Shown here: positions 4,767 to 28,041 of the stretch, piece by piece | How the letters are laid out: every line of letters starts with the position of its first letter | Numbering within the stretch: the first letter of the stretch is position 1 | IMG/VR virus record: IMGVR_UViG_2852270433_000001 | Span: 1-31,411 of that record | Length of the DNA stretch: 31,411 nucleotides | Strand: one strand, 5' to 3' | Origin: a virus | Notes under the pieces: model-generated | The model's input: the letters and a program-made list of their open reading frames with translations, nothing else | Told to the model about the DNA's origin: nothing | The model's database searches: none | Position numbers and translations under genes: made by a program

Positions 4767-6635
4767 TTAAAAGCCTCCGGCAAGCCGGTTTATCCCTGTT
4801 TGCAATCTTCCGTTGCCCTTCTGCACTATCTTCAAGATTTCCTCGAATTTAGCATCTACATATTTTTTCGTATCTGCCTGCACGGCATTTACCTTGCTCG
4901 CCTGTGCTGTTGCTATGGTTTGTAAATAATCCATCAATTTTTTTGAGTATTGTCCATTTTCTCTCAATACGTTTTCCATAACATCAAACACGCCTTGAAG
5001 CTCGCTGGGGTCGATTTCCGTATCTTTGTCCGAAATGCTTTCCGCAAGGCGTTTCTTCCCTGCATTCAAAGCTTCGCGGGCAGCTGCAATCCGGGCGCGT
5101 TGCTGGGCGGTAGGATGCTCGGGTACGCCTTCAAGGGCAATGCCGCGGATCATCGCCTGCTGCCTCTCGGCGGTCTGCTTTTGAGCCTCCCTTTCGGCCC
5201 GTTCACGAGCCTTCTTTATTTTTTCTTCATTTCTTCGGGCTTCCTCTGCTTCTTCCCTGTCTCTTTGCAAGTTAAATGATTTAACCTTGCCGGCGTCTAT
5301 TTGGTTTTGAATAGCGTCGATTTGTTCCATGTTTTTGATAGATGCTTCGGTCGAAGCCATTGCATCCCCCAAAGAACCGGCTTTCTCTGTTAAATCATCA
5401 AACTGTTTTTTCGCGGCGTCCGTATTCTTCTTAAACTCTTCTACCGCAGCTGATGCTTGTTTGAAGCGACTATTAACATCTGTTCCTTGTCTATAGTCAA
5501 ATTCAAGATTTACGCCGCCGGCTCTTAACGAATCCTGAAATTCTCCCAATCCAGATTGGGCAGCATTTAATTCTTCTTGCGCTGCTGTACGAGCAACTAA
5601 AAGACGTTGATTTTCCTCTTGTGCTTGAATTAAGTATCGTTGAGCGTCCTCACGTCGAGTGGCATTTGGGGCATATTTCACTCCTATTTCTCTTCTTTGT
5701 ATTGCTTTTTGTATTTCGGGTAATTTTTCATTTATCTCATCGATACTCCGTTGAGCACGTTCTTGCTGCTGTAAAAGGCCAAGAATATTTTGAATAGAAG
5801 GAAGGTTCCCCTGCTTGAATTGCATATCAAAAGCATGAGCTTCGGCCGCATCTCTGGCCTTGACTGCCTCCGCAAGCTGTTTCCCCATATCCATATAGTT
5901 AGCTTGCTCTACGCTTAAATCACGCTGGCGGATTTTCTGGTCCAGATTCTGATCCACCATCATCAGGCCATAATCTCGTTGCCTCTTGGTGATTCTTCCT
6001 TGCTGGTAGTCATTTTCCAGGTTGACGCGCTCAAGCTCTGCCTGGCGTGTATCAATTCCTTTCTTACGGGCCGCTTCCTCCCGTCTCAAGCGAATTTGTT
6101 TTTCAAGTTCTTCCGTTTGATATTCGAATTCACGGGTAATGCCCTTTACATAGTTTTGATACTCTTTATTAACGGTTTTGGTGCGTTCTTGCTGGTTGAA
6201 TTCCTGCAAAGCCTGATAACTTGCCCGGATAGCCTGACGAGAAGCTTCGGCAATCTCTTTGCTATGCTCCTTCATTTTTTTGGCGAGATCCGCCGACTTG
6301 TCTTCCGTTTTTCCCATCCATTCGTAAAGCTTCGCTCCGGCCAGAACGGCAAGCGACATCGCGCCGGCCAGACCTGCGCCGCCTCCGAATCCTATCACCA
6401 GCCCGGGAATGTTGTTCAGGATGCCCTTGATGCCGTACTGCACGTCGTCCATGAAATAGGCGACTTGCAGCAACCCCTGTCCCATGTTCTTCACGCTCCG
6501 GGTTGCTTGCTGGCTCCCCTTATCAAGTTGTTCCGTCGACTTGTTCAGCACGTCGATCTGCTGTTTGGCTTCTTCCACGCCTTTTCCGTCCAGCGTGGAC
6601 TTGAGTTTGATTTCGATTTCTTTCTTGGTGGCCAT
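4767..6635 (-). CDS. Tail tape measure protein
   Basis: 622 aa. A Gly-rich hydrophobic segment (GILNNIPGLVIGFGGGAGLAGAMSLAVLAGAKLYEW) is followed by about 480 aa of E/K/R/Q/A-rich coiled coil. The position in the tail module fits. Confidence 0.75.
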   Translation of the reverse strand: MATKKEIEIKLKSTLDGKGVEEAKQQIDVLNKSTEQLDKGSQQATRSVKNMGQGLLQVAYFMDDVQYGIKGILNNIPGLVIGFGGGAGLAGAMSLAVLAGAKLYEWMGKTEDKSADLAKKMKEHSKEIAEASRQAIRASYQALQEFNQQERTKTVNKEYQNYVKGITREFEYQTEELEKQIRLRREEAARKKGIDTRQAELERVNLENDYQQGRITKRQRDYGLMMVDQNLDQKIRQRDLSVEQANYMDMGKQLAEAVKARDAAEAHAFDMQFKQGNLPSIQNILGLLQQQERAQRSIDEINEKLPEIQKAIQRREIGVKYAPNATRREDAQRYLIQAQEENQRLLVARTAAQEELNAAQSGLGEFQDSLRAGGVNLEFDYRQGTDVNSRFKQASAAVEEFKKNTDAAKKQFDDLTEKAGSLGDAMASTEASIKNMEQIDAIQNQIDAGKVKSFNLQRDREEAEEARRNEEKIKKARERAEREAQKQTAERQQAMIRGIALEGVPEHPTAQQRARIAAAREALNAGKKRLAESISDKDTEIDPSELQGVFDVMENVLRENGQYSKKLMDYLQTIATAQASKVNAVQADTKKYVDAKFEEILKIVQKGNGRLQTGINRLAGGF

Positions 6636-20145: not shown

Positions 20146-21492
20146 CTAATATCTCCCGTAAGCGCGTTTTGATGACACGGGCCGGGCGTACCAGGCTCCC
20201 AGCGTCCGCGCCAGTCCGCTGTTCCGTCGCGCGTGCCAGGCCATGACGAGGGCGTCAGCCCGGTCTGGGGAGCGAACGCCCCGTTTCGCCATATCTTCCT
20301 TGCTCTCAATTCGGACGCGGCCTATTGCGTCGGTTTGGAGTCGGGGCGCCACAAGCTGTTCAATCGTATCCTCGTCAATATCGAGGATGAGTTCTTTTTC
20401 CTCGATGGCGCGTGCCAGGGCCCGCCATGCCTGGGCTCGCAGATTGACAAAGGCTTGTGTGTCATCCGCCGGGAATCCGCCCCGGTAGGAGTGCACCGGA
20501 AAGCCCTCGGCGCGGAAGTCGTCAATGATGGGCAGCCCCAGGCCGTCGCCGTCGGCAAAGATGCGGTCGGCGGAGATGCCGAGTTCGGCGGCCTTTCGGC
20601 GGAAACGTCCGCGTGCTCCTACAGTGTCCGGGTCAGACCAGTGGTCGGCGATGAAAAAACGGTTGCCCTGCCCGGCCGCGAAGACGTTTTCATCACCCCC
20701 CGCGGCAAAGTCGAAGCCGCCGCAGGTCTCCCCGGTGTCCAGGAAGGGAGGCGGGTTGTTGACCAGCTCCATGAGGGCACGTCGGGAAATGACGGATTGT
20801 CCGTCAAGGTCGGTGAATTCACCGAGGATGGCCGAGCGATAGAAGGAGGACTGCTCCCCGTATTCTTTCTTCAGGCGTTCGGCCTTGCCCGGGTCGTTGA
20901 TTTCGATGTGCGGGCAATCCTCGTATTTGACGCGGATCTTGTAGTAGAGGGATGAATTTTTGTGGAAGCAGTCGTAGAAGGTGCCGGAATCAGCACCCGG
21001 CGATGAGGTGATGAACGCGTGAAAGAGCGTGCAGCGTGAAACCGCGGTGAAGATGGAGTCGGGAATGGTCTTGGCCTCGTCAAGGACGTAAAAGACCGGG
21101 TCCACGTCGGGCGAGATTTTCGGATGCCACCCTTCCGCTCGTCCGGCGTTGTCGGTGGAGAATCCCACGGCAAACCCTCCCTCCGGCGTGCGGATCTCCG
21201 TCTTGTTGAAGGTCCATCCGGAAAAGAAAGGATTGTCCATGTAACGGCGAAGCGCGGGAAAGAGCTGCTTTTCTACCTGCATCCACGATGAGGACGTAAC
21301 CGGGACCTGTCCCCGCGGAAAACAGGTGAGAAAGTACAGGATGGCCGGCGCAATGCAGTTGCTCGTCTTTCCGGAGCCGTTAGGAGCGACCAGGGCCACG
21401 CTTTTCCCTCCCAGGGTCAGCTTGCCCAGGGATAACGCCTTGATGGCCTCCACCTGCCATGGATAGGGGTCAAGGCGGAGGATATGGCGCAA
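20146..21492 (-). CDS. terL: Terminase large subunit
   Basis: 448 aa. Walker A is VAPNGSGKTS, preceded by LDPYPWQ, with a C-terminal nuclease-like half. The track start is TTG at 21492. An in-frame AGG at 21517-21519 lies two codons after the terS stop. Confidence 0.85.
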   Translation of the reverse strand: MRHILRLDPYPWQVEAIKALSLGKLTLGGKSVALVAPNGSGKTSNCIAPAILYFLTCFPRGQVPVTSSSWMQVEKQLFPALRRYMDNPFFSGWTFNKTEIRTPEGGFAVGFSTDNAGRAEGWHPKISPDVDPVFYVLDEAKTIPDSIFTAVSRCTLFHAFITSSPGADSGTFYDCFHKNSSLYYKIRVKYEDCPHIEINDPGKAERLKKEYGEQSSFYRSAILGEFTDLDGQSVISRRALMELVNNPPPFLDTGETCGGFDFAAGGDENVFAAGQGNRFFIADHWSDPDTVGARGRFRRKAAELGISADRIFADGDGLGLPIIDDFRAEGFPVHSYRGGFPADDTQAFVNLRAQAWRALARAIEEKELILDIDEDTIEQLVAPRLQTDAIGRVRIESKEDMAKRGVRSPDRADALVMAWHARRNSGLARTLGAWYARPVSSKRAYGRY

Positions 21493-21525
21493 GAAGAAGC
21501 TGACGGGAAGTCGTGTCCTGACGGG

Positions 21526-21933
21526 TTAGGGATGGAGTTTGCCGGCGATGGTTTCCAGCGCGGTTTTCTCGTCTTCCTGCAGCTGGGCGAGCTGCTCGGG
21601 GTCCAGCGTGATTTTCCGTTCCAGCGGCGCGCCGGGAACGCCGGCGACATCCTGGCGGACCCGGTCTCCGAATTTCTCAGGCGCGAAGCGGGCGGCGACT
21701 TTCAGCCGGGTTTCAATGGCGAGCTTCTTCGCGGCGACGGAGGCGGAGCCGCATTCCGGGTCAAGGGCGACTTTCGCGGCTTCGTCGGCCAGCTCCTGAC
21801 AGGCGTCGAGCATGGCTTCCGACTGCGCTTCCCGCGCGCGTTGAATGAGTTTGGAAAACTCCGGCTTTGTTTCACGCCAGTTCCAGACCGTCCAGACCTC
21901 CGGCATGTGGTCATCGGAGCAGATGGATTTCAT
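21526..21933 (-). CDS. terS: Terminase small subunit (HTH-type); N-terminus apparently extends upstream of the first ATG
   Basis: Immediately upstream of terL. The in-frame upstream sequence KRKPGRPSLYTEELAAEIASRLANGET-MKSICSDDHMPEVWTVWNWRETKPEF...RAREAQSEAML matches the common GRP..YT.EL...I...L..G.S...IC....MP...TV..W....PEF...YARARE.Q pattern of small terminases. No ATG/GTG/TTG lies between the TAA-TAG stops (22042-22047) and 21933. Confidence 0.65.
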   Translation of the reverse strand: MKSICSDDHMPEVWTVWNWRETKPEFSKLIQRAREAQSEAMLDACQELADEAAKVALDPECGSASVAAKKLAIETRLKVAARFAPEKFGDRVRQDVAGVPGAPLERKITLDPEQLAQLQEDEKTALETIAGKLHP

Positions 21934-22043
21934 GGTTTCCCCGTTGGCAAGGCGGGAGGCTATCTCGGCGGCCAGTTCCTCGGTGTAGAGGCTCGGCCGC
22001 CCCGGTTTTCTTTTGGTGGTAGGTTTCTTTTTCCTGCGGCTCT

Positions 22044-22073
22044 ATTATAGGAGGCAACGGATATCCAATTCAA
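22044..22073 (-). promoter_or_regulatory. Candidate late-operon promoter (sigma70-like)
   Basis: Minus strand: TTGAAT (22068-22073), an 18-nt spacer, then TATAAT (22044-22049). The predicted start site falls within a few nt of the AGG at 22033-22035, so the transcript would be near-leaderless. Confidence 0.4.
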
Positions 22074-22125
22074 GCGCGTTGTTTGTTCTTGATTCGCAAC
22101 GCTCATTTTTCAAACTGTGGGGCGT

Positions 22126-22641
22126 ATGAAACGATGTCCTATCTGCGGCAAGGATGTTCCTCCCCGCGCGGGCAAGCGCGACAGCGTGTACTGTTCCCGG
22201 GCCTGCCTCCAGGCTCACTATGCGGAGGCCTGGGAAACGCTCACATGCCCTGTGTGCGGGAACGTATTCCGGGCCCAAAAACTGTGGCACCGTCAATACT
22301 GCTCTGCGGAGTGCGCCAACCGCGCCCAGCGAGGGAGGAAAATCACGTCCGCAGCGTTTTTGGAGGCCTGCCGTCATCGTGGCGTTTGGGGACCTCGCAA
22401 GCATCCGAGGACCGGGAAATTTGAGACGAATTGCCACGCCAAAGTCTGGCGCGTGGAGTCGCCGGAAGGAGAAGAGGTAACGGCGCGCAATCTCAAGCTT
22501 TACATGGTCACCCGTTTTGGCGAAACCGAAGGCAAAAAGATTTATAAACTCCTGACCTGCGCCGCCTGCCGTTTCCGCAAATCTGGGAGAGGCACGGGGG
22601 CCGGATGGCGGATTCTGGAAGCTCCATCCGTCCCGGAATAA
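22126..22641 (+). CDS. Double zinc-ribbon protein with a C-terminal domain resembling those on free-standing phage endonuclease-like genes
   Basis: The duplicated motif is CPICG...YCSRAC and CPVCG...YCSAEC. The C-terminal WRVESPEGEEVTARNLKLY...GAGWRILE resembles the W.l..P.G....v.NL..F......GW pattern. I prefer the ATG at 22126 over the GTG at 22117. It is the only + gene here, opposite terS. Confidence 0.5.
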   Translation: MKRCPICGKDVPPRAGKRDSVYCSRACLQAHYAEAWETLTCPVCGNVFRAQKLWHRQYCSAECANRAQRGRKITSAAFLEACRHRGVWGPRKHPRTGKFETNCHAKVWRVESPEGEEVTARNLKLYMVTRFGETEGKKIYKLLTCAACRFRKSGRGTGAGWRILEAPSVPE

Positions 22642-22677
22642 AAAAGGGGCGGCTTCGAAAAAAACCGCCCCTTTTTA
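22641..22677. terminator. Bidirectional rho-independent terminator
   Basis: AAAAA-GGGGCGG (22646-22652), a 12-nt loop, CCGCCCC (22665-22671), then TTTTT. It starts at the stop codon of the zinc-ribbon gene. Confidence 0.75.
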
Positions 22678-22824
22678 AGGGAAATGGGCGTTGCCGCCCG
22701 GATGATCTTGCGATCGTTTTAATCCACAGCCCCGAAGGGCTGAACGTTCAGAAAGAACGCCTCCTCCTATCATTTTTTGATGGAGGACGACAACGAAAAA
22801 AATCTTCTTTTTTCATTTTTTCTC

Positions 22825-22853
22825 TTGCAATACTAAACATTGTTTAGTATATT
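22825..22853 (+). promoter_or_regulatory. Sigma70-like promoter with an embedded palindromic operator
   Basis: TTGCAA (22825-22830), a 17-nt spacer, then TATATT (22848-22853). The spacer and box edges form the perfect palindrome ATACTAAACA-T-TGTTTAGTAT (22830-22850). Confidence 0.55.
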
Positions 22854-22923
22854 GATCTTGTTGACGGGAGGTAAGGGACCAACCGGAGACACAATCCAAA
22901 ACCAAACCAGAAAGACTAAAACA

Positions 22924-23181
22924 ATGAACGCTGATAAAACTTACAAAGTCCGAGAAATATTCACCTTTCACCGCCATGAAATAGCTATTGCCGGAGAAGT
23001 GGTGAAAAACTATGACGAAGAAGGAAGAACCTATAATTTTTATTGCCCGGTGCGGGAAGTCCACGGCGTAAGGCATGGACTTGTCAGCGGCAATGTTCCG
23101 GAAGAAGTAAAAGACTTTGTTGATGTGAGAGACATCCTTGAAAAAGCGGAAGAATACGATGTGGTTGTAGATTGGGACTAA
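22924..23181 (+). CDS. Small acidic protein, unknown function (anti-defence candidate 1)
   Basis: 85 aa from the ATG at 22924 (MNADKTYKV...). The longer track form starts inside the promoter. About 19 D/E versus about 11 K/R. Its initiation region is about 88 percent identical to that of the next gene. Confidence 0.55.
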   Translation: MNADKTYKVREIFTFHRHEIAIAGEVVKNYDEEGRTYNFYCPVREVHGVRHGLVSGNVPEEVKDFVDVRDILEKAEEYDVVVDWD

Positions 23182-23210
23182 AATAAAACCAAATCAGAAA
23201 GAACAAGACA

Positions 23211-23534
23211 ATGAACGACAACAAAATCATCACCACGGAAGACGGCGAAGAAATCAATCTGAGCGCGCTTGAACGCGAATTCGGTAGCTATGATTTTGAA
23301 GGACACACCTACTATGCTGCTCGCCAAATGGAATTAACCAATCGTCTTTTTGACGGATGCTACAACGACGCGGAAGAAGGAGAGGAATACATCTCGGAAT
23401 ACTCCGCGCCCGGATACGACGAAAACGGAAACCCCGTGGAAATCTTCATGACTTTCACGCAGGTGAAAGGTGAAGAGATAGACCCGGAAAACCTTAACTG
23501 GTTCCAGGACTCCGACCGCGTTGAAGCCCTCTAA
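23211..23534 (+). CDS. Small strongly acidic protein, unknown function (anti-defence candidate 2)
   Basis: 107 aa with about 27 D/E versus about 6 K/R. ATG start. No recognisable motif. Confidence 0.6.
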   Translation: MNDNKIITTEDGEEINLSALEREFGSYDFEGHTYYAARQMELTNRLFDGCYNDAEEGEEYISEYSAPGYDENGNPVEIFMTFTQVKGEEIDPENLNWFQDSDRVEAL

Positions 23535-23542
23535 CCATGATT

Positions 23543-23566
23543 CCAGGGCGGTGCATGCCGCCCTGG
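23543..23566 (+). promoter_or_regulatory. GC-rich hairpin between the acidic ORF and the HTH gene
   Basis: CCAGGGCGG-TGCATG-CCGCCCTGG: a 9-bp perfect stem and 6-nt loop with no U tract. It ends 7 nt before the ATG at 23574. Confidence 0.5.
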
Positions 23567-23573
23567 CACAGCT

Positions 23574-23774
23574 ATGACTATTCAAGAATTTGTTGATTGG
23601 GTGCAGTCCAGATACCATTTGCGATCCAAAACTTCTGCGGTCAAAAAGGCTGCGCACATGTTGCGGGTGACGGAAATGGCTGTTTGGCAATGGTTGAGAG
23701 GGTCCAGACAAACGAGTCCTTCCATGGAGCTGCTGATGGAGCTAATCACCCGTCACGGATTGCCGGACGAATAG
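23574..23774 (+). CDS. Cro/YdaS-like helix-turn-helix regulator (Aca-like position)
   Basis: 66 aa. VKKAAHMLRVTEMAVWQWLRGSRQTS fits the aA..Lgvs..aV.qW..g.r HTH pattern. It is the last gene of the plus-strand cassette. Confidence 0.7.
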   Translation: MTIQEFVDWVQSRYHLRSKTSAVKKAAHMLRVTEMAVWQWLRGSRQTSPSMELLMELITRHGLPDE

Positions 23775-23791
23775 ACCTATACGAGATTCCA

Positions 23792-23809
23792 GGGGGATTT
23801 TCATCCCCC
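23792..23809. terminator. Hairpin between convergent operons (weak terminator candidate)
   Basis: GGGGGAT-TTTC-ATCCCCC: a 7-bp stem with no clear U tract on either strand. It overlaps the stop of the 336-aa minus gene. Confidence 0.3.
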
Positions 23810-27232: not shown

Positions 27233-27552
27233 GATTCCCCCTCCTTTCTTGGTTCCCAGTTGACAGGATCAGCCCATTGAGAACATTTCGCGCAGGGGGA
27301 ATTTGATGCAGGTAATTTGAAGTGCAGACAGTTATTGCAATATCTGTCTTCCATTGGCACCCACGCCCGGCACGCGGCACGCTTCTGCCATGCGTCACGG
27401 ATGGCATCTTCAACGCCGTACATTATCCGGGGTTCTCCGTGGTAATCGCCGCATTCTTTGAAGCCTTCTGTGAAGCGCATGAGGCTTTTCCGCTCTTTCA
27501 GGATTCCAAGGGCTTCTCCGTACTTCAAAATATCTTTCTGTTCAGCATTCAT
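27229..27552 (-). CDS. Hypothetical Cys-rich protein
   Basis: 107-aa ORF, ATGA-coupled at both ends (27549-27552 and 27229-27232), with a C-terminal CNNC...CAKC cluster. Confidence 0.5.
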   Translation of the reverse strand: MNAEQKDILKYGEALGILKERKSLMRFTEGFKECGDYHGEPRIMYGVEDAIRDAWQKRAACRAWVPMEDRYCNNCLHFKLPASNSPCAKCSQWADPVNWEPRKEGES

Positions 27553-27653
27553 TTTCCTTTTATTTTGAATATAATATATTGGATAATTAAAATAATCCCC
27601 AACACGATTAAAACTGAAACCGTGATAATATCAAATAAATCAATAATTATCAT
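27549..27653 (-). CDS. 34-aa single-TM micro-ORF
   Basis: MIIIDLFDIITVSVLIVLGIILIIQYIIFKIKGK. Both ends overlap neighbouring genes as ATGA. It lies in a ~20 percent GC tract and is below the ORF-track cutoff. Confidence 0.3.
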   Translation of the reverse strand: MIIIDLFDIITVSVLIVLGIILIIQYIIFKIKGK

Positions 27654-27811
27654 TTATTATCATCCTTTCTTGGTTCATCGTCGCTGTATTCTATAAAAAC
27701 TCTTATAGCATCTAGAAAACCTTTAATCTTTCCTGCCAGGTAATAGTAATACCCAAAGACAGCAATGGTGGCCAATATAACGAAAAGCTGTATAATATCA
27801 AAAAGCATCAT
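27650..27811 (-). CDS. 53-aa single-TM micro-ORF
   Basis: MMLFDIIQLFVILATIAVFGYYYYLAGKIKGFLDAIRVFIEYSDDEPRKDDNK. ATGA overlaps at both ends. Below the ORF-track cutoff. Confidence 0.35.
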   Translation of the reverse strand: MMLFDIIQLFVILATIAVFGYYYYLAGKIKGFLDAIRVFIEYSDDEPRKDDNK

Positions 27812-28041
27812 TTGGCTCCTTTCCGTTTAAGTGTCATCTCATTCTTTTCGGGATTTGTGTTAAGTTCATACGCCAAATCTTCCGCTTTGAAATAGGATTC
27901 AGCTTGTGACAATGGGTTAATGTAAAAAATAGCTACAAGTTCGTTCTGTTTTATGTCAAATACCTCATACCCTCCAACTCTATCATCAGGTAAAAACATT
28001 GTGCCCCTATGTACTCGTACAATAAAGTTATCATCGTCCAT
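27808..28041 (-). CDS. Hypothetical protein
   Basis: 77 aa from the ATG at 28041 (MDDDNFIV...), preceded by AAGGAGG with a 5-nt spacer. The longer track form lacks an RBS. Confidence 0.5.
   Translation of the reverse strand: MDDDNFIVRVHRGTMFLPDDRVGGYEVFDIKQNELVAIFYINPLSQAESYFKAEDLAYELNTNPEKNEMTLKRKGAK

Follow-up and report, generated by a model that had tools for sequence, protein, structure and literature searches.

In acr-aca operons, which act against clustered regularly interspaced short palindromic repeat (CRISPR) immunity, anti-CRISPR (acr) genes are followed by a gene for a helix-turn-helix (HTH) autorepressor, the anti-CRISPR-associated (Aca) protein, that binds inverted repeats in the promoter of the operon, as known for Aca1 and Aca2 of Pseudomonas and Pectobacterium phages. 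RNA elements form a second group of close comparators. RacrIC1 is a solitary type I-C repeat located beside AcrIC5 (PMC10651486), and in a Cracr RNA a single pseudo-repeat is joined to a pseudo-spacer and closed by a rho-independent terminator (bioRxiv 10.1101/2024.10.29.618823). Type I-C CRISPR-associated (CRISPR-Cas) systems with a TTC protospacer adjacent motif are present in all Akkermansia species, with spacers that target Akkermansia phages, and part of the genus carries type II-C as well (PMC8278651). Literature searches found no report of an anti-CRISPR in Akkermansia phages or in Verrucomicrobiota.

Here a plus-strand cassette of comparable layout is described from a 31,411-nt stretch of viral DNA (IMG/VR record IMGVR_UViG_2852270433_000001, positions 1 to 31,411; hereafter the window), which is assigned by comparison with known phages to a temperate Akkermansia phage. 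As in acr-aca operons, the cassette (22825-23809) has small orphan genes (85 and 107 aa) directly upstream of a co-oriented small HTH gene, the HTH anchor is conserved while the cargo is variable, a dyad overlaps the core promoter, and the whole is accessory and found in unrelated phages. It differs from them in its host phylum, Verrucomicrobiota, in an HTH protein that falls outside every recognised Aca family open to checking, in cargo families that are new, and in anchors that in some loci are multi-HTH proteins of 311-434 aa. An acr-aca layout had been proposed for this segment in a preliminary description, and comparative data now support that layout more strongly than the sequence alone could, through an optional block, a constant HTH gene and promoter, swapped cargo and a covarying dyad. 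The cassette is best described, from its comparisons, as having the architecture of an acr-aca operon with homology to no known Aca and no known Acr family.

The cassette is very probably an HTH-autoregulated, mobile accessory operon, and anti-defence of some kind is its likely role. By analogy with the systems above, we lean towards a mobile, optional, acr-aca-like anti-defence operon whose target would be type I-C CRISPR-Cas. The broader anti-defence assignment is the firmer of the two because it sums this explanation and its non-CRISPR anti-defence rival.

A constant HTH gene and exchangeable cargo

The core of the cassette consists of the following features, given with the isoelectric point (pI) and net charge of the proteins encoded by the two upstream open reading frames (ORFs).

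22825-22853, plus strand: sigma-70-type promoter (promoter scan, 9/12 matches)
22830-22850: 21-bp dyad, putative operator, covering the promoter spacer, one base of the -35 box and three bases of the -10 box
22924-23181, plus strand: ORF1, 85 aa, pI 4.9, net charge -8; optional cargo and candidate inhibitor
23211-23534, plus strand: ORF2, 107 aa, pI 4.05, net charge -21; commonest cargo and candidate inhibitor
23574-23774, plus strand: HTH protein, 66 aa; conserved 3' anchor and putative Aca-like autorepressor

The three plus-strand ORFs of 85, 107 and 66 aa that had been predicted were all recovered, on one strand and with gaps of 29-39 nt between them. The first two had been described as strongly acidic, which is true of ORF2 (25% D+E, only 6 K+R), whereas the acidity of ORF1 is only moderate.

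Searches of viral contigs with an HTH profile and a DNA pattern yielded around 40 related loci. The HTH gene closes the 3' end of the cassette in every locus with enough sequence (53-98% identity), and the promoter position is kept in all loci that retain the module. Between this constant promoter and the constant HTH gene the cargo varies, with at least five families plus several fusions across the approximately 40 loci, in the following arrangements.

ORF2 alone: the commonest arrangement
ORF1 and ORF2: the window
ORF1, a pentapeptide-repeat protein and a 102-aa protein
Pentapeptide-repeat protein and 102-aa protein
95-aa domain (N95) fused in frame to ORF2: three independent contigs
Pentapeptide-repeat protein fused in frame to ORF2: one contig, in which an assembly error is possible

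ORF1 is found in some related cassettes only (the window, L017 and L018) and has 15 homologue clusters at 57-94% identity and of conserved length; ORF2 has 43 close homologue clusters, all of the same length. The alternative cargo (L017-L019, L024 and L009) is a 122-aa pentapeptide-repeat protein (PF00805, 1.5e-38) with a 102-aa orphan (MKKYIIPQKF...), and the pentapeptide-repeat gene is absent from the window itself. The variability among relatives that the preliminary description had proposed as a check is therefore borne out: the cassette is absent from Akkermansia phage DTMo-2021a and its cargo is swapped, while promoter and HTH gene are fixed.

Ahead of every cargo gene stands the motif (aaaacc)aaa[t/c]cagaaaga[a/c]..a[a/g]acaATGA, of which one copy also lies beside the repeat-like element described below; the copies in the window are at 22749-22758, 22903-22923 and 23190-23210. 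The junctions of cargo gains, losses and in-frame fusions are all at this motif, which is thus apparently both the translation-initiation region and the point of recombination. In L002, a deletion between two copies removed the promoter.

The anchor itself can form part of a larger protein. In L018 and L019 a 196-aa protein joins a 130-aa acidic N-terminal domain to the HTH; it looks like an Acr-Aca fusion and, as a cargo-domain/HTH fusion, recalls AcrIIA1. In L022 and L023 the protein is 311 aa long with four tandem HTH units, and in L093, L100 and L113 it is 434 aa long and has some eight LGKxPDxEIAKKFGYS-type repeats after the HTH.

The promoter dyad and the HTH recognition helix

The promoter has the composition that had been given for it, with a -35 box TTGCAA (22825-22830) and a -10 box TATATT (22848-22853) separated by a 17-nt spacer. 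The palindrome reported in the spacer was likewise found to be perfect: it reads ATACTAAACA-T-TGTTTAGTAT in 10+1+10 form at 22830-22850, is unique in the window, and has 0.00 expected matches in shuffles of the window. Eleven distinct promoters from the related loci were aligned without gaps and the arms treated as pairs. The inner eight pairs are approximately 98% complementary across these promoters; four of the inner pairs have changed on both arms and none on one arm alone, and shuffled and slid controls of the pairing all scored far lower. The dyad is upstream of the transcription start, so RNA structure is no explanation for it.

The operators fall into four classes, each paired with its own variant of the HTH recognition helix.

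TACTAAACA-T-TGTTTAGTA: window type; recognition helix TEMAVWQW
TACTGCTCA-A-TGAGCAtTA: L004; recognition helix GERTVWQW
TACTATTCA-A-TGAATAGTA: L024; recognition helix REITVWQW
TACTATAAA-T-TTTATAGTA: L022 and L093; recognition helices TEDAVWKW and SDILVWKW

This tracking of operator class with recognition helix supports Aca-like autorepression. From it we infer that the 21-bp dyad is the binding site of a dimer of the 66-aa HTH protein, and a dimer that blocks the spacer between the -35 and -10 boxes would be the simplest reading of the dyad. Control of the promoter by LexA was set aside, since the dyad changes between loci together with the HTH of the cassette.

Two further elements of the transcript are conserved. 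The 5' untranslated region (5'-UTR) contains the motif GTTGACGGGAGGTAAGGGACC (22860-22880, plus strand), which is near-invariant across loci and more conserved than the coding sequence, though operators and proteins have diverged between the same loci; it has no significant predicted fold (z = -1.7). Between the ORF2 stop and the HTH start, a GC-rich 9-bp hairpin, CCAGGGCGG-UGCAUG-CCGCCCUGG (23543-23566, plus strand), was read from the sequence; it is kept in L002 and L004, and the single change in L002 still pairs as G-U in the plus-strand RNA. This hairpin may uncouple or attenuate expression of the HTH protein, or may be a processing site, and is reminiscent of the RNA-level control described for Aca2.

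Occurrence in two unrelated phage backbones

Homologues of ORF2 are present in two kinds of locus. The first comprises phages with the backbone of the window, of which some carry another, IstB/DnaC-like replication module; in these siphovirus-like phages the module lies between the small-terminase gene (terS) and either of two different replication modules. The second comprises Mu-like Akkermansia prophages (Gam, AAA_22 MuB-like), in which ORF2 and the HTH gene lie at the end of the prophage, before an orphan N6/N4 methyltransferase gene (for example L002 6664-7362 and L004 6609-7328). Homology between window-type and Mu-type loci begins exactly at the terminator on the left of the cassette and stops after the HTH gene. 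The module of terminator, repeat-like element, promoter, ORF2 and HTH gene is mobile and resides in two unrelated phage backbones. The position of the methyltransferase gene at the Mu-like prophage end recalls the com-mom anti-restriction region of phage Mu. A reading of the HTH and methyltransferase of these prophages as a restriction-modification (RM) system with its controller (C) protein was set aside, as no gene for an endonuclease comes next and the operator is located ahead of the cargo genes.

The closest match of the window is Akkermansia phage DTMo-2021a, with 89% identity over 78% of the first 25 kb. Comparison by blastn with the sequence of that phage (CP084202) delimits an accessory block at 22040-23799, between the small-terminase gene of the late operon and the replication gene of the early operon. 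DTMo-2021a has 61 bp where the window has these 1760 bp, the junctions being window 22039 at locus position 5939 and window 23800 at locus position 6001 of CP084202, which makes the whole 1.76-kb block, consisting of an HNH-like gene and the cassette, optional. The GC content of the cassette is 44% against 56-60% in the flanks.

In being optional, in its plus-strand position between functional modules, in having a promoter and terminators of its own and in a GC content below that of its flanks, the block fits the textbook moron. Phage P22 ImmI, in which an antirepressor is controlled by a small repressor whose operator overlaps the promoter, provides a precedent for an immunity-region-like switch. 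An ordinary autoregulated moron or switch of this kind, with an antirepressor, a superinfection-exclusion or a host-modulating protein under a Cro-like repressor and with no anti-defence role, is nevertheless quite unlikely here. At least five unrelated cargo families and their fusions upstream of one anchor form the signature of an arms race, not of a lysis-lysogeny switch, and the module serves phages of two unrelated types, which must have different repressors. Inspected by eye, the cargo proteins are acidic with no long hydrophobic stretch and so look soluble, unlike most exclusion proteins. The cassette also departs from morons in its putative dedicated autorepressor with a co-varying operator, in a cargo turnover of the counter-defence type, and in the CRISPR-repeat-like element next to it.

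Cargo and HTH proteins

The label 'Cro/YdaS-like' attached to the 66-aa HTH protein rests on matches below threshold. The best of these are YdaS_toxin (E = 0.0017; 18.6 bits against a cut-off of 30) and PHROG repressors (E ~0.005), matches in NCBIfam are weak, sub-threshold, antitoxin-type and of a generic HTH nature, and a profile search of all PDB sequences returned only the XRE-type HTH 2a6c (E = 0.46). These names would suit a type II toxin-antitoxin module with the HTH protein as antitoxin, given a top Pfam match called YdaS_toxin and the antitoxin-type matches in NCBIfam. Such a module is highly improbable, as all the matches are below threshold and generic, no toxin family of PADLOC or Pfam was matched, and the upstream proteins are acidic, mutually unrelated and freely exchanged or lost, with no fixed two-gene unit.

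ORF1 and ORF2 match nothing in Pfam, PHROGs, NCBIfam or PADLOC, in keeping with the earlier statement that they belong to no recognisable family. They were considered as possible paralogues and rejected as such (hhalign probability 0.9%). Structure models were made with AlphaFold2 (AF2). The model of ORF1 has moderate confidence (predicted local distance difference test, pLDDT, 72), whereas that of ORF2 is confident (pLDDT 87) and beta-rich, with one short helix in the secondary-structure readout. Foldseek comparison of both models with the PDB gave nothing at E < 1e-3 (template modelling score, TM, <= 0.37; E > 0.1), and hidden Markov model (HMM) searches of PDB sequences with ORF1 and ORF2 gave nothing below E = 0.05. 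The structural check that had been suggested for both ORFs thus found no PDB homologue of unrelated function, and it also found no known anti-defence fold. With no PDB match by fold or by sequence, ORF1 and ORF2 lie outside the structurally known Acr, Ocr and ArdA families, and the fold of ORF2, on the strength of its confident model, is predicted to be novel.

In BFVD the best match of the ORF2 model is a marginal one (E = 1.9e-3, TM 0.54), to a protein that is uncharacterised and comes from SMHB1, a Mu-like phage of Salinivibrio. A profile search of 1.84 billion representative proteins found the ORF2 domain in 172 clusters at E < 1e-3, 42 of them at E < 1e-10. The domain is often C-terminal in longer proteins, none of 54 sampled members has a Pfam family covering it, and one member (P0084, L138 4001-4456) has an N-terminal ribbon-helix-helix (RHH) DNA-binding domain. 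All four distant members that were sampled lie in phage-like neighbourhoods, in early or accessory regions, most of them among small unannotated genes. On these profile matches, ORF2 is taken as a representative of a widespread, unnamed phage domain superfamily.

The charge of ORF2 raises the main rival to a type I-C target, namely a role as DNA mimic against RM or bacteriophage exclusion (BREX) systems. Pentapeptide-repeat proteins are classical B-DNA mimics, exemplified by MfpA and Qnr. The cassette would then be anti-defence without being anti-CRISPR: the acidic and pentapeptide-repeat proteins would serve as DNA mimics or decoys against RM, BREX or other DNA-sensing systems, and the repeat-like element would be irrelevant. 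The net charge of -21 on ORF2 fits this explanation, and so does the cargo of this B-DNA mimic class in sister cassettes, where in one contig it is fused to ORF2. The orphan methyltransferase that adjoins the Mu-like module is a typical anti-restriction gene. Both BREX and RM loci are present in A. muciniphila (PMC10799925). We nonetheless consider this explanation improbable, if less so than a moron. The predicted folds of ORF1 and ORF2 match neither Ocr nor ArdA, that of ORF2 being beta-rich with one short helix, and the window has no pentapeptide-repeat gene. Nor does this explanation account for a type I-C repeat-like unit being conserved more than any other part of the module.

A type I-C repeat-like element beside the promoter

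Far from being an empty insulator, the interval from the terminator to the promoter holds a conserved structured element, and this interval is conserved in both phage types. From left to right its features are as follows.

22641-22680 (hairpin 22641-22677), both strands: bidirectional intrinsic terminator, which bounds on the left the module that Mu-like prophages share
22686-22699, minus strand: hairpin 2, GGGCG-GCAA-CGCCC, flanked by the terminator and the repeat-like element
22716-22744, minus strand: solitary type I-C CRISPR-repeat-like unit (hairpin 3), hairpin CAGCCC-UUCG-GGGCUG followed by the handle UGGAUUAAAAC; candidate Racr or Cracr

The minus strand from 22744 to 22716 reads UUCAGCCCUUCGGGGCUGUGGAUUAAAAC, a 6-bp GC-rich hairpin that ends directly at the handle UGGAUUAAAAC, which is one base off the canonical type I-C 5' handle UGGAUUGAAAC; as DNA, the element is a CAGCCC/GGGCTG stem with a TGGATTAAAAC handle. 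Resemblance to type I-C repeats was assessed with a covariance model built from 10 independent repeats (from two papers and from arrays found with other patterns). None of these has the A variant, and the test is thereby kept from being circular. With filters off, the top match in the window was 22716-22744 (13.6 bits, E = 0.03, full-length). Across 87 kb of related loci the model matched the same position wherever the element is kept, with nothing else above 11.7 bits, and reached 20.1 bits (E = 3e-4) in L004 and 18.3 bits in L022. In total, 23 of 23 non-chance matches to the DNA pattern in IMG/VR lie approximately 200 nt upstream of a cassette; the remaining matches (L104, L111 and L112) were rejected as chance occurrences within coding regions of 40% GC phages.

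There is one repeat-like copy per locus, with no second copy in the window, outside any array and with no cas genes. The stem of the repeat-like unit and hairpin 2 are 100% paired in nine distinct sequences; four pairs of the stem and hairpin 2 have changed on both sides, two of them among the five pairs of hairpin 2, and the handle is near-invariant. A covarying stem joined to a near-invariant handle, as seen in these sequences, is how a CRISPR repeat is conserved. Neither strand of hairpin 3 has a U-tract, so hairpin 3 is not a terminator. Following the unit on the minus strand is a tail of 5-40 nt that contains hairpin 2 and differs between phage types, and then the strong terminator; the putative 140-nt minus-strand RNA has a predicted folding energy of -64.6 kcal/mol (z = -5.9). 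A mini-CRISPR array made of hairpins 3 and 2 was considered and rejected, the gap between them being only 4-16 nt.

As with Racr, the element is a single type I-C-like repeat with no array and no cas genes that adjoins an acr-like operon, and as with Cracr, its minus-strand order is a repeat-like unit, a short tail and an intrinsic terminator. It differs from both in a stem-loop 3-4 nt shorter than that of canonical type I-C repeats and in its location on the strand opposite the acr-like operon rather than within it. The tail, by differing between phage types, presents no evident shared target of the Cracr kind. On the covariance evidence we consider it fairly probable that the element is a genuine repeat mimic, and less so that it acts as an anti-CRISPR RNA.

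Support for and against a type I-C target

In the mechanism proposed, the near-consensus promoter would fire early, on infection or induction, and the operon would make one to three small, cytoplasmic, mostly acidic proteins (here ORF1 and ORF2) followed by the small HTH protein. ORF1 and ORF2 may bind and block a host immune effector, the likeliest being the type I-C CRISPR-Cas complex, and the HTH protein would build up, bind the 21-bp dyad as a dimer and shut the operon. A repeat-mimic small RNA from the minus strand could provide a second layer, either as a decoy that soaks up Cas5 and Cas7, like Racr, or by redirecting them, like Cracr. All of these parts might together form a composite counter-CRISPR module, in which new inhibitors, with the founding member of the ORF2 domain superfamily among them, and a new Aca-type repressor family with at least four operator classes are joined by a type I-C repeat-mimic RNA whose gene stands back to back with the acr promoter and whose transcript ends at the shared bidirectional terminator; this combination is put forward tentatively and is more doubtful than the type I-C target as such.

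A number of observations weigh against a type I-C target. Those that concern the proteins are the lack of a match between the HTH protein and any solved Aca protein in the PDB profile search, and its absence from every described Aca family checkable in PDB, Pfam, NCBIfam and PHROG, no dedicated Aca library having been searched. ORF1 and ORF2 have no likeness in sequence or predicted fold to AcrIC1-IC9, to other solved Acrs, or to Ocr and ArdA, and the PDB sequence search with the 102-aa cargo protein gave no useful match and no likeness to known Acr, Ocr or ArdA proteins. Inhibition of a host defence by the cassette is proposed from its likeness to established acr-aca operons.

The remaining observations concern the element. 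It has been lost from L017 and L018 while the operon was kept. The scan for its minus-strand promoter found no consensus sigma-70 site in four locus types, though the sensitivity of the scan is low, since in three of the four types the plus-strand promoter escaped it too. Hairpin 2 is followed in Mu-type loci by TTTTTGTTTT on the plus strand and can be read there as a plus-strand terminator, and the stem changes, G-C to C-G or A-U, do not distinguish the strands. The published type I-C repeat of A. muciniphila is GTCGCTCTCCGCAAGGAGAGCGTGGATAGAAAT (PMC8530359). In the comparison with host repeats, which rests on this one published Akkermansia repeat, the element shares 9 of 12 handle bases and the stem of the host repeat is longer. 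Arrays with the GTGGATTAAAAC handle, found in a metagenome scan, belong mostly to organisms of approximately 35% GC and have no spacer against the phage.

The lack of an identifiable minus-strand promoter, the plus-strand T-run after hairpin 2 in Mu-type loci and the strand-neutral stem changes, together with a window-level E of only 0.03, a handle in which 3 of 12 positions differ from those of the published Akkermansia repeat, and Rfam searches of 22500-23000 that gave sub-threshold sRNA or terminator matches only and no CRISPR-DR family, suit an alternative in which 22680-22757 is unrelated to CRISPR. The hairpins would then be an insulating stack or a structure in the 3'-UTR of the gene upstream, with the GTGGATTAAAAC match due to chance. 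This alternative is credible, if less probable than repeat mimicry. It has to accommodate a single-stranded handle that stayed near-invariant while the stems changed, as in a CRISPR repeat, scores in L004 and L022 that no other site in 87 kb comes near, and a hairpin 3 that is no terminator.

Further searches for host repeats gave little. A scan of viral contigs with the published Akkermansia-type handle found arrays of 55-61% GC with a different stem and no spacer matches; an exact search for the published A. muciniphila repeat found only the end of a 42% GC contig and a chance match; and no further Akkermansia repeat sequences were found in the literature and its supplements. L025-L089 form a large family of type I-C arrays from human-gut metagenomes, in organisms of approximately 35% GC, and their repeats end in GTGGATTAAAA(C/T), not GTGGATTGAAAC. 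None of the 334 spacers of these arrays matches the Akkermansia phage loci.

Akkermansia muciniphila ranks among the leading next-generation probiotics, and type I-C systems in every Akkermansia species are an obvious handle for genome editing and for the prediction of phage susceptibility. If the inhibitors are validated, they would account for the persistence of temperate Akkermansia phages in the face of abundant matching spacers and would provide off-switches for type I-C editing, and a validated new Aca family would serve as guilt-by-association bait in a phylum for which the literature searches found no Acr. Should the composite arrangement prove true, it could be the first anti-CRISPR in Verrucomicrobiota and would pair protein with RNA. 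The novelty, if confirmed, would lie in the Aca-like and cargo families and in their back-to-back pairing with a divergent type I-C repeat mimic. An active repeat-like element would extend RNA anti-CRISPRs to Verrucomicrobiota, and divergent repeat mimics of this kind would evade identity-based searches. As the ORF2 domain is present in 172 clusters from many phages, assigning its function would annotate a sizeable part of phage dark matter.

Flanking features and host phage

The integrase gene of the window is at 1-1188 on the plus strand. The late genes are on the minus strand, up to the large- and small-terminase genes (20146-21933), as are the early genes from 23801 on, which include those for a replication protein, a C5-methyltransferase, a YqaJ exonuclease and RecT. 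The cassette thus lies at the junction of early and late regions and opposes both operons. Its surroundings include the following features.

22117-22641, plus strand: zinc-finger/HNH-like gene, 174 aa, basic (pI 9.8), upstream of the cassette
23792-23809, plus strand: 3' hairpin that overlaps the convergent replication gene at its stop codon

The terminator at 22641-22677 is strong in both directions, as the preliminary description had it, with predicted energies of -19.7 kcal/mol on the plus strand and -24.5 kcal/mol (z = -4.9) on the minus strand, the minus side being the stronger, and it is bordered by A6 and T5-6 runs. The convergent hairpin at 23792-23809 is also present (-13.6 kcal/mol), but it has no U-tract and is a weak terminator at best. 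Its left arm arrived with the cassette, and its right arm belongs to the phage backbone.

The cassette had been thought to be the only plus-strand block besides int. This is corrected by the HNH-like gene, which is also on the plus strand directly upstream and points away from the terminase operon. Its 174-aa product has two CxxC...CxxC zinc-finger motifs, a match to the HNH endonuclease family phrog_1271 (4.4e-10) and weak Pfam matches of treble-clef and zinc-ribbon type. Conservation in related loci (64-100% aa identity) marks it as a real gene. Some relatives have the gene, whereas L005-type loci show a clean deletion of it that spares only the last 16 codons (48 nt). The gene is probably a separate passenger of the block and may be a separate mobile or homing element.

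Elsewhere in the early region, the GC content falls to 36% at 27400-28000, where the ORFs are small and unannotated; this low-GC stretch may be a second accessory insertion.

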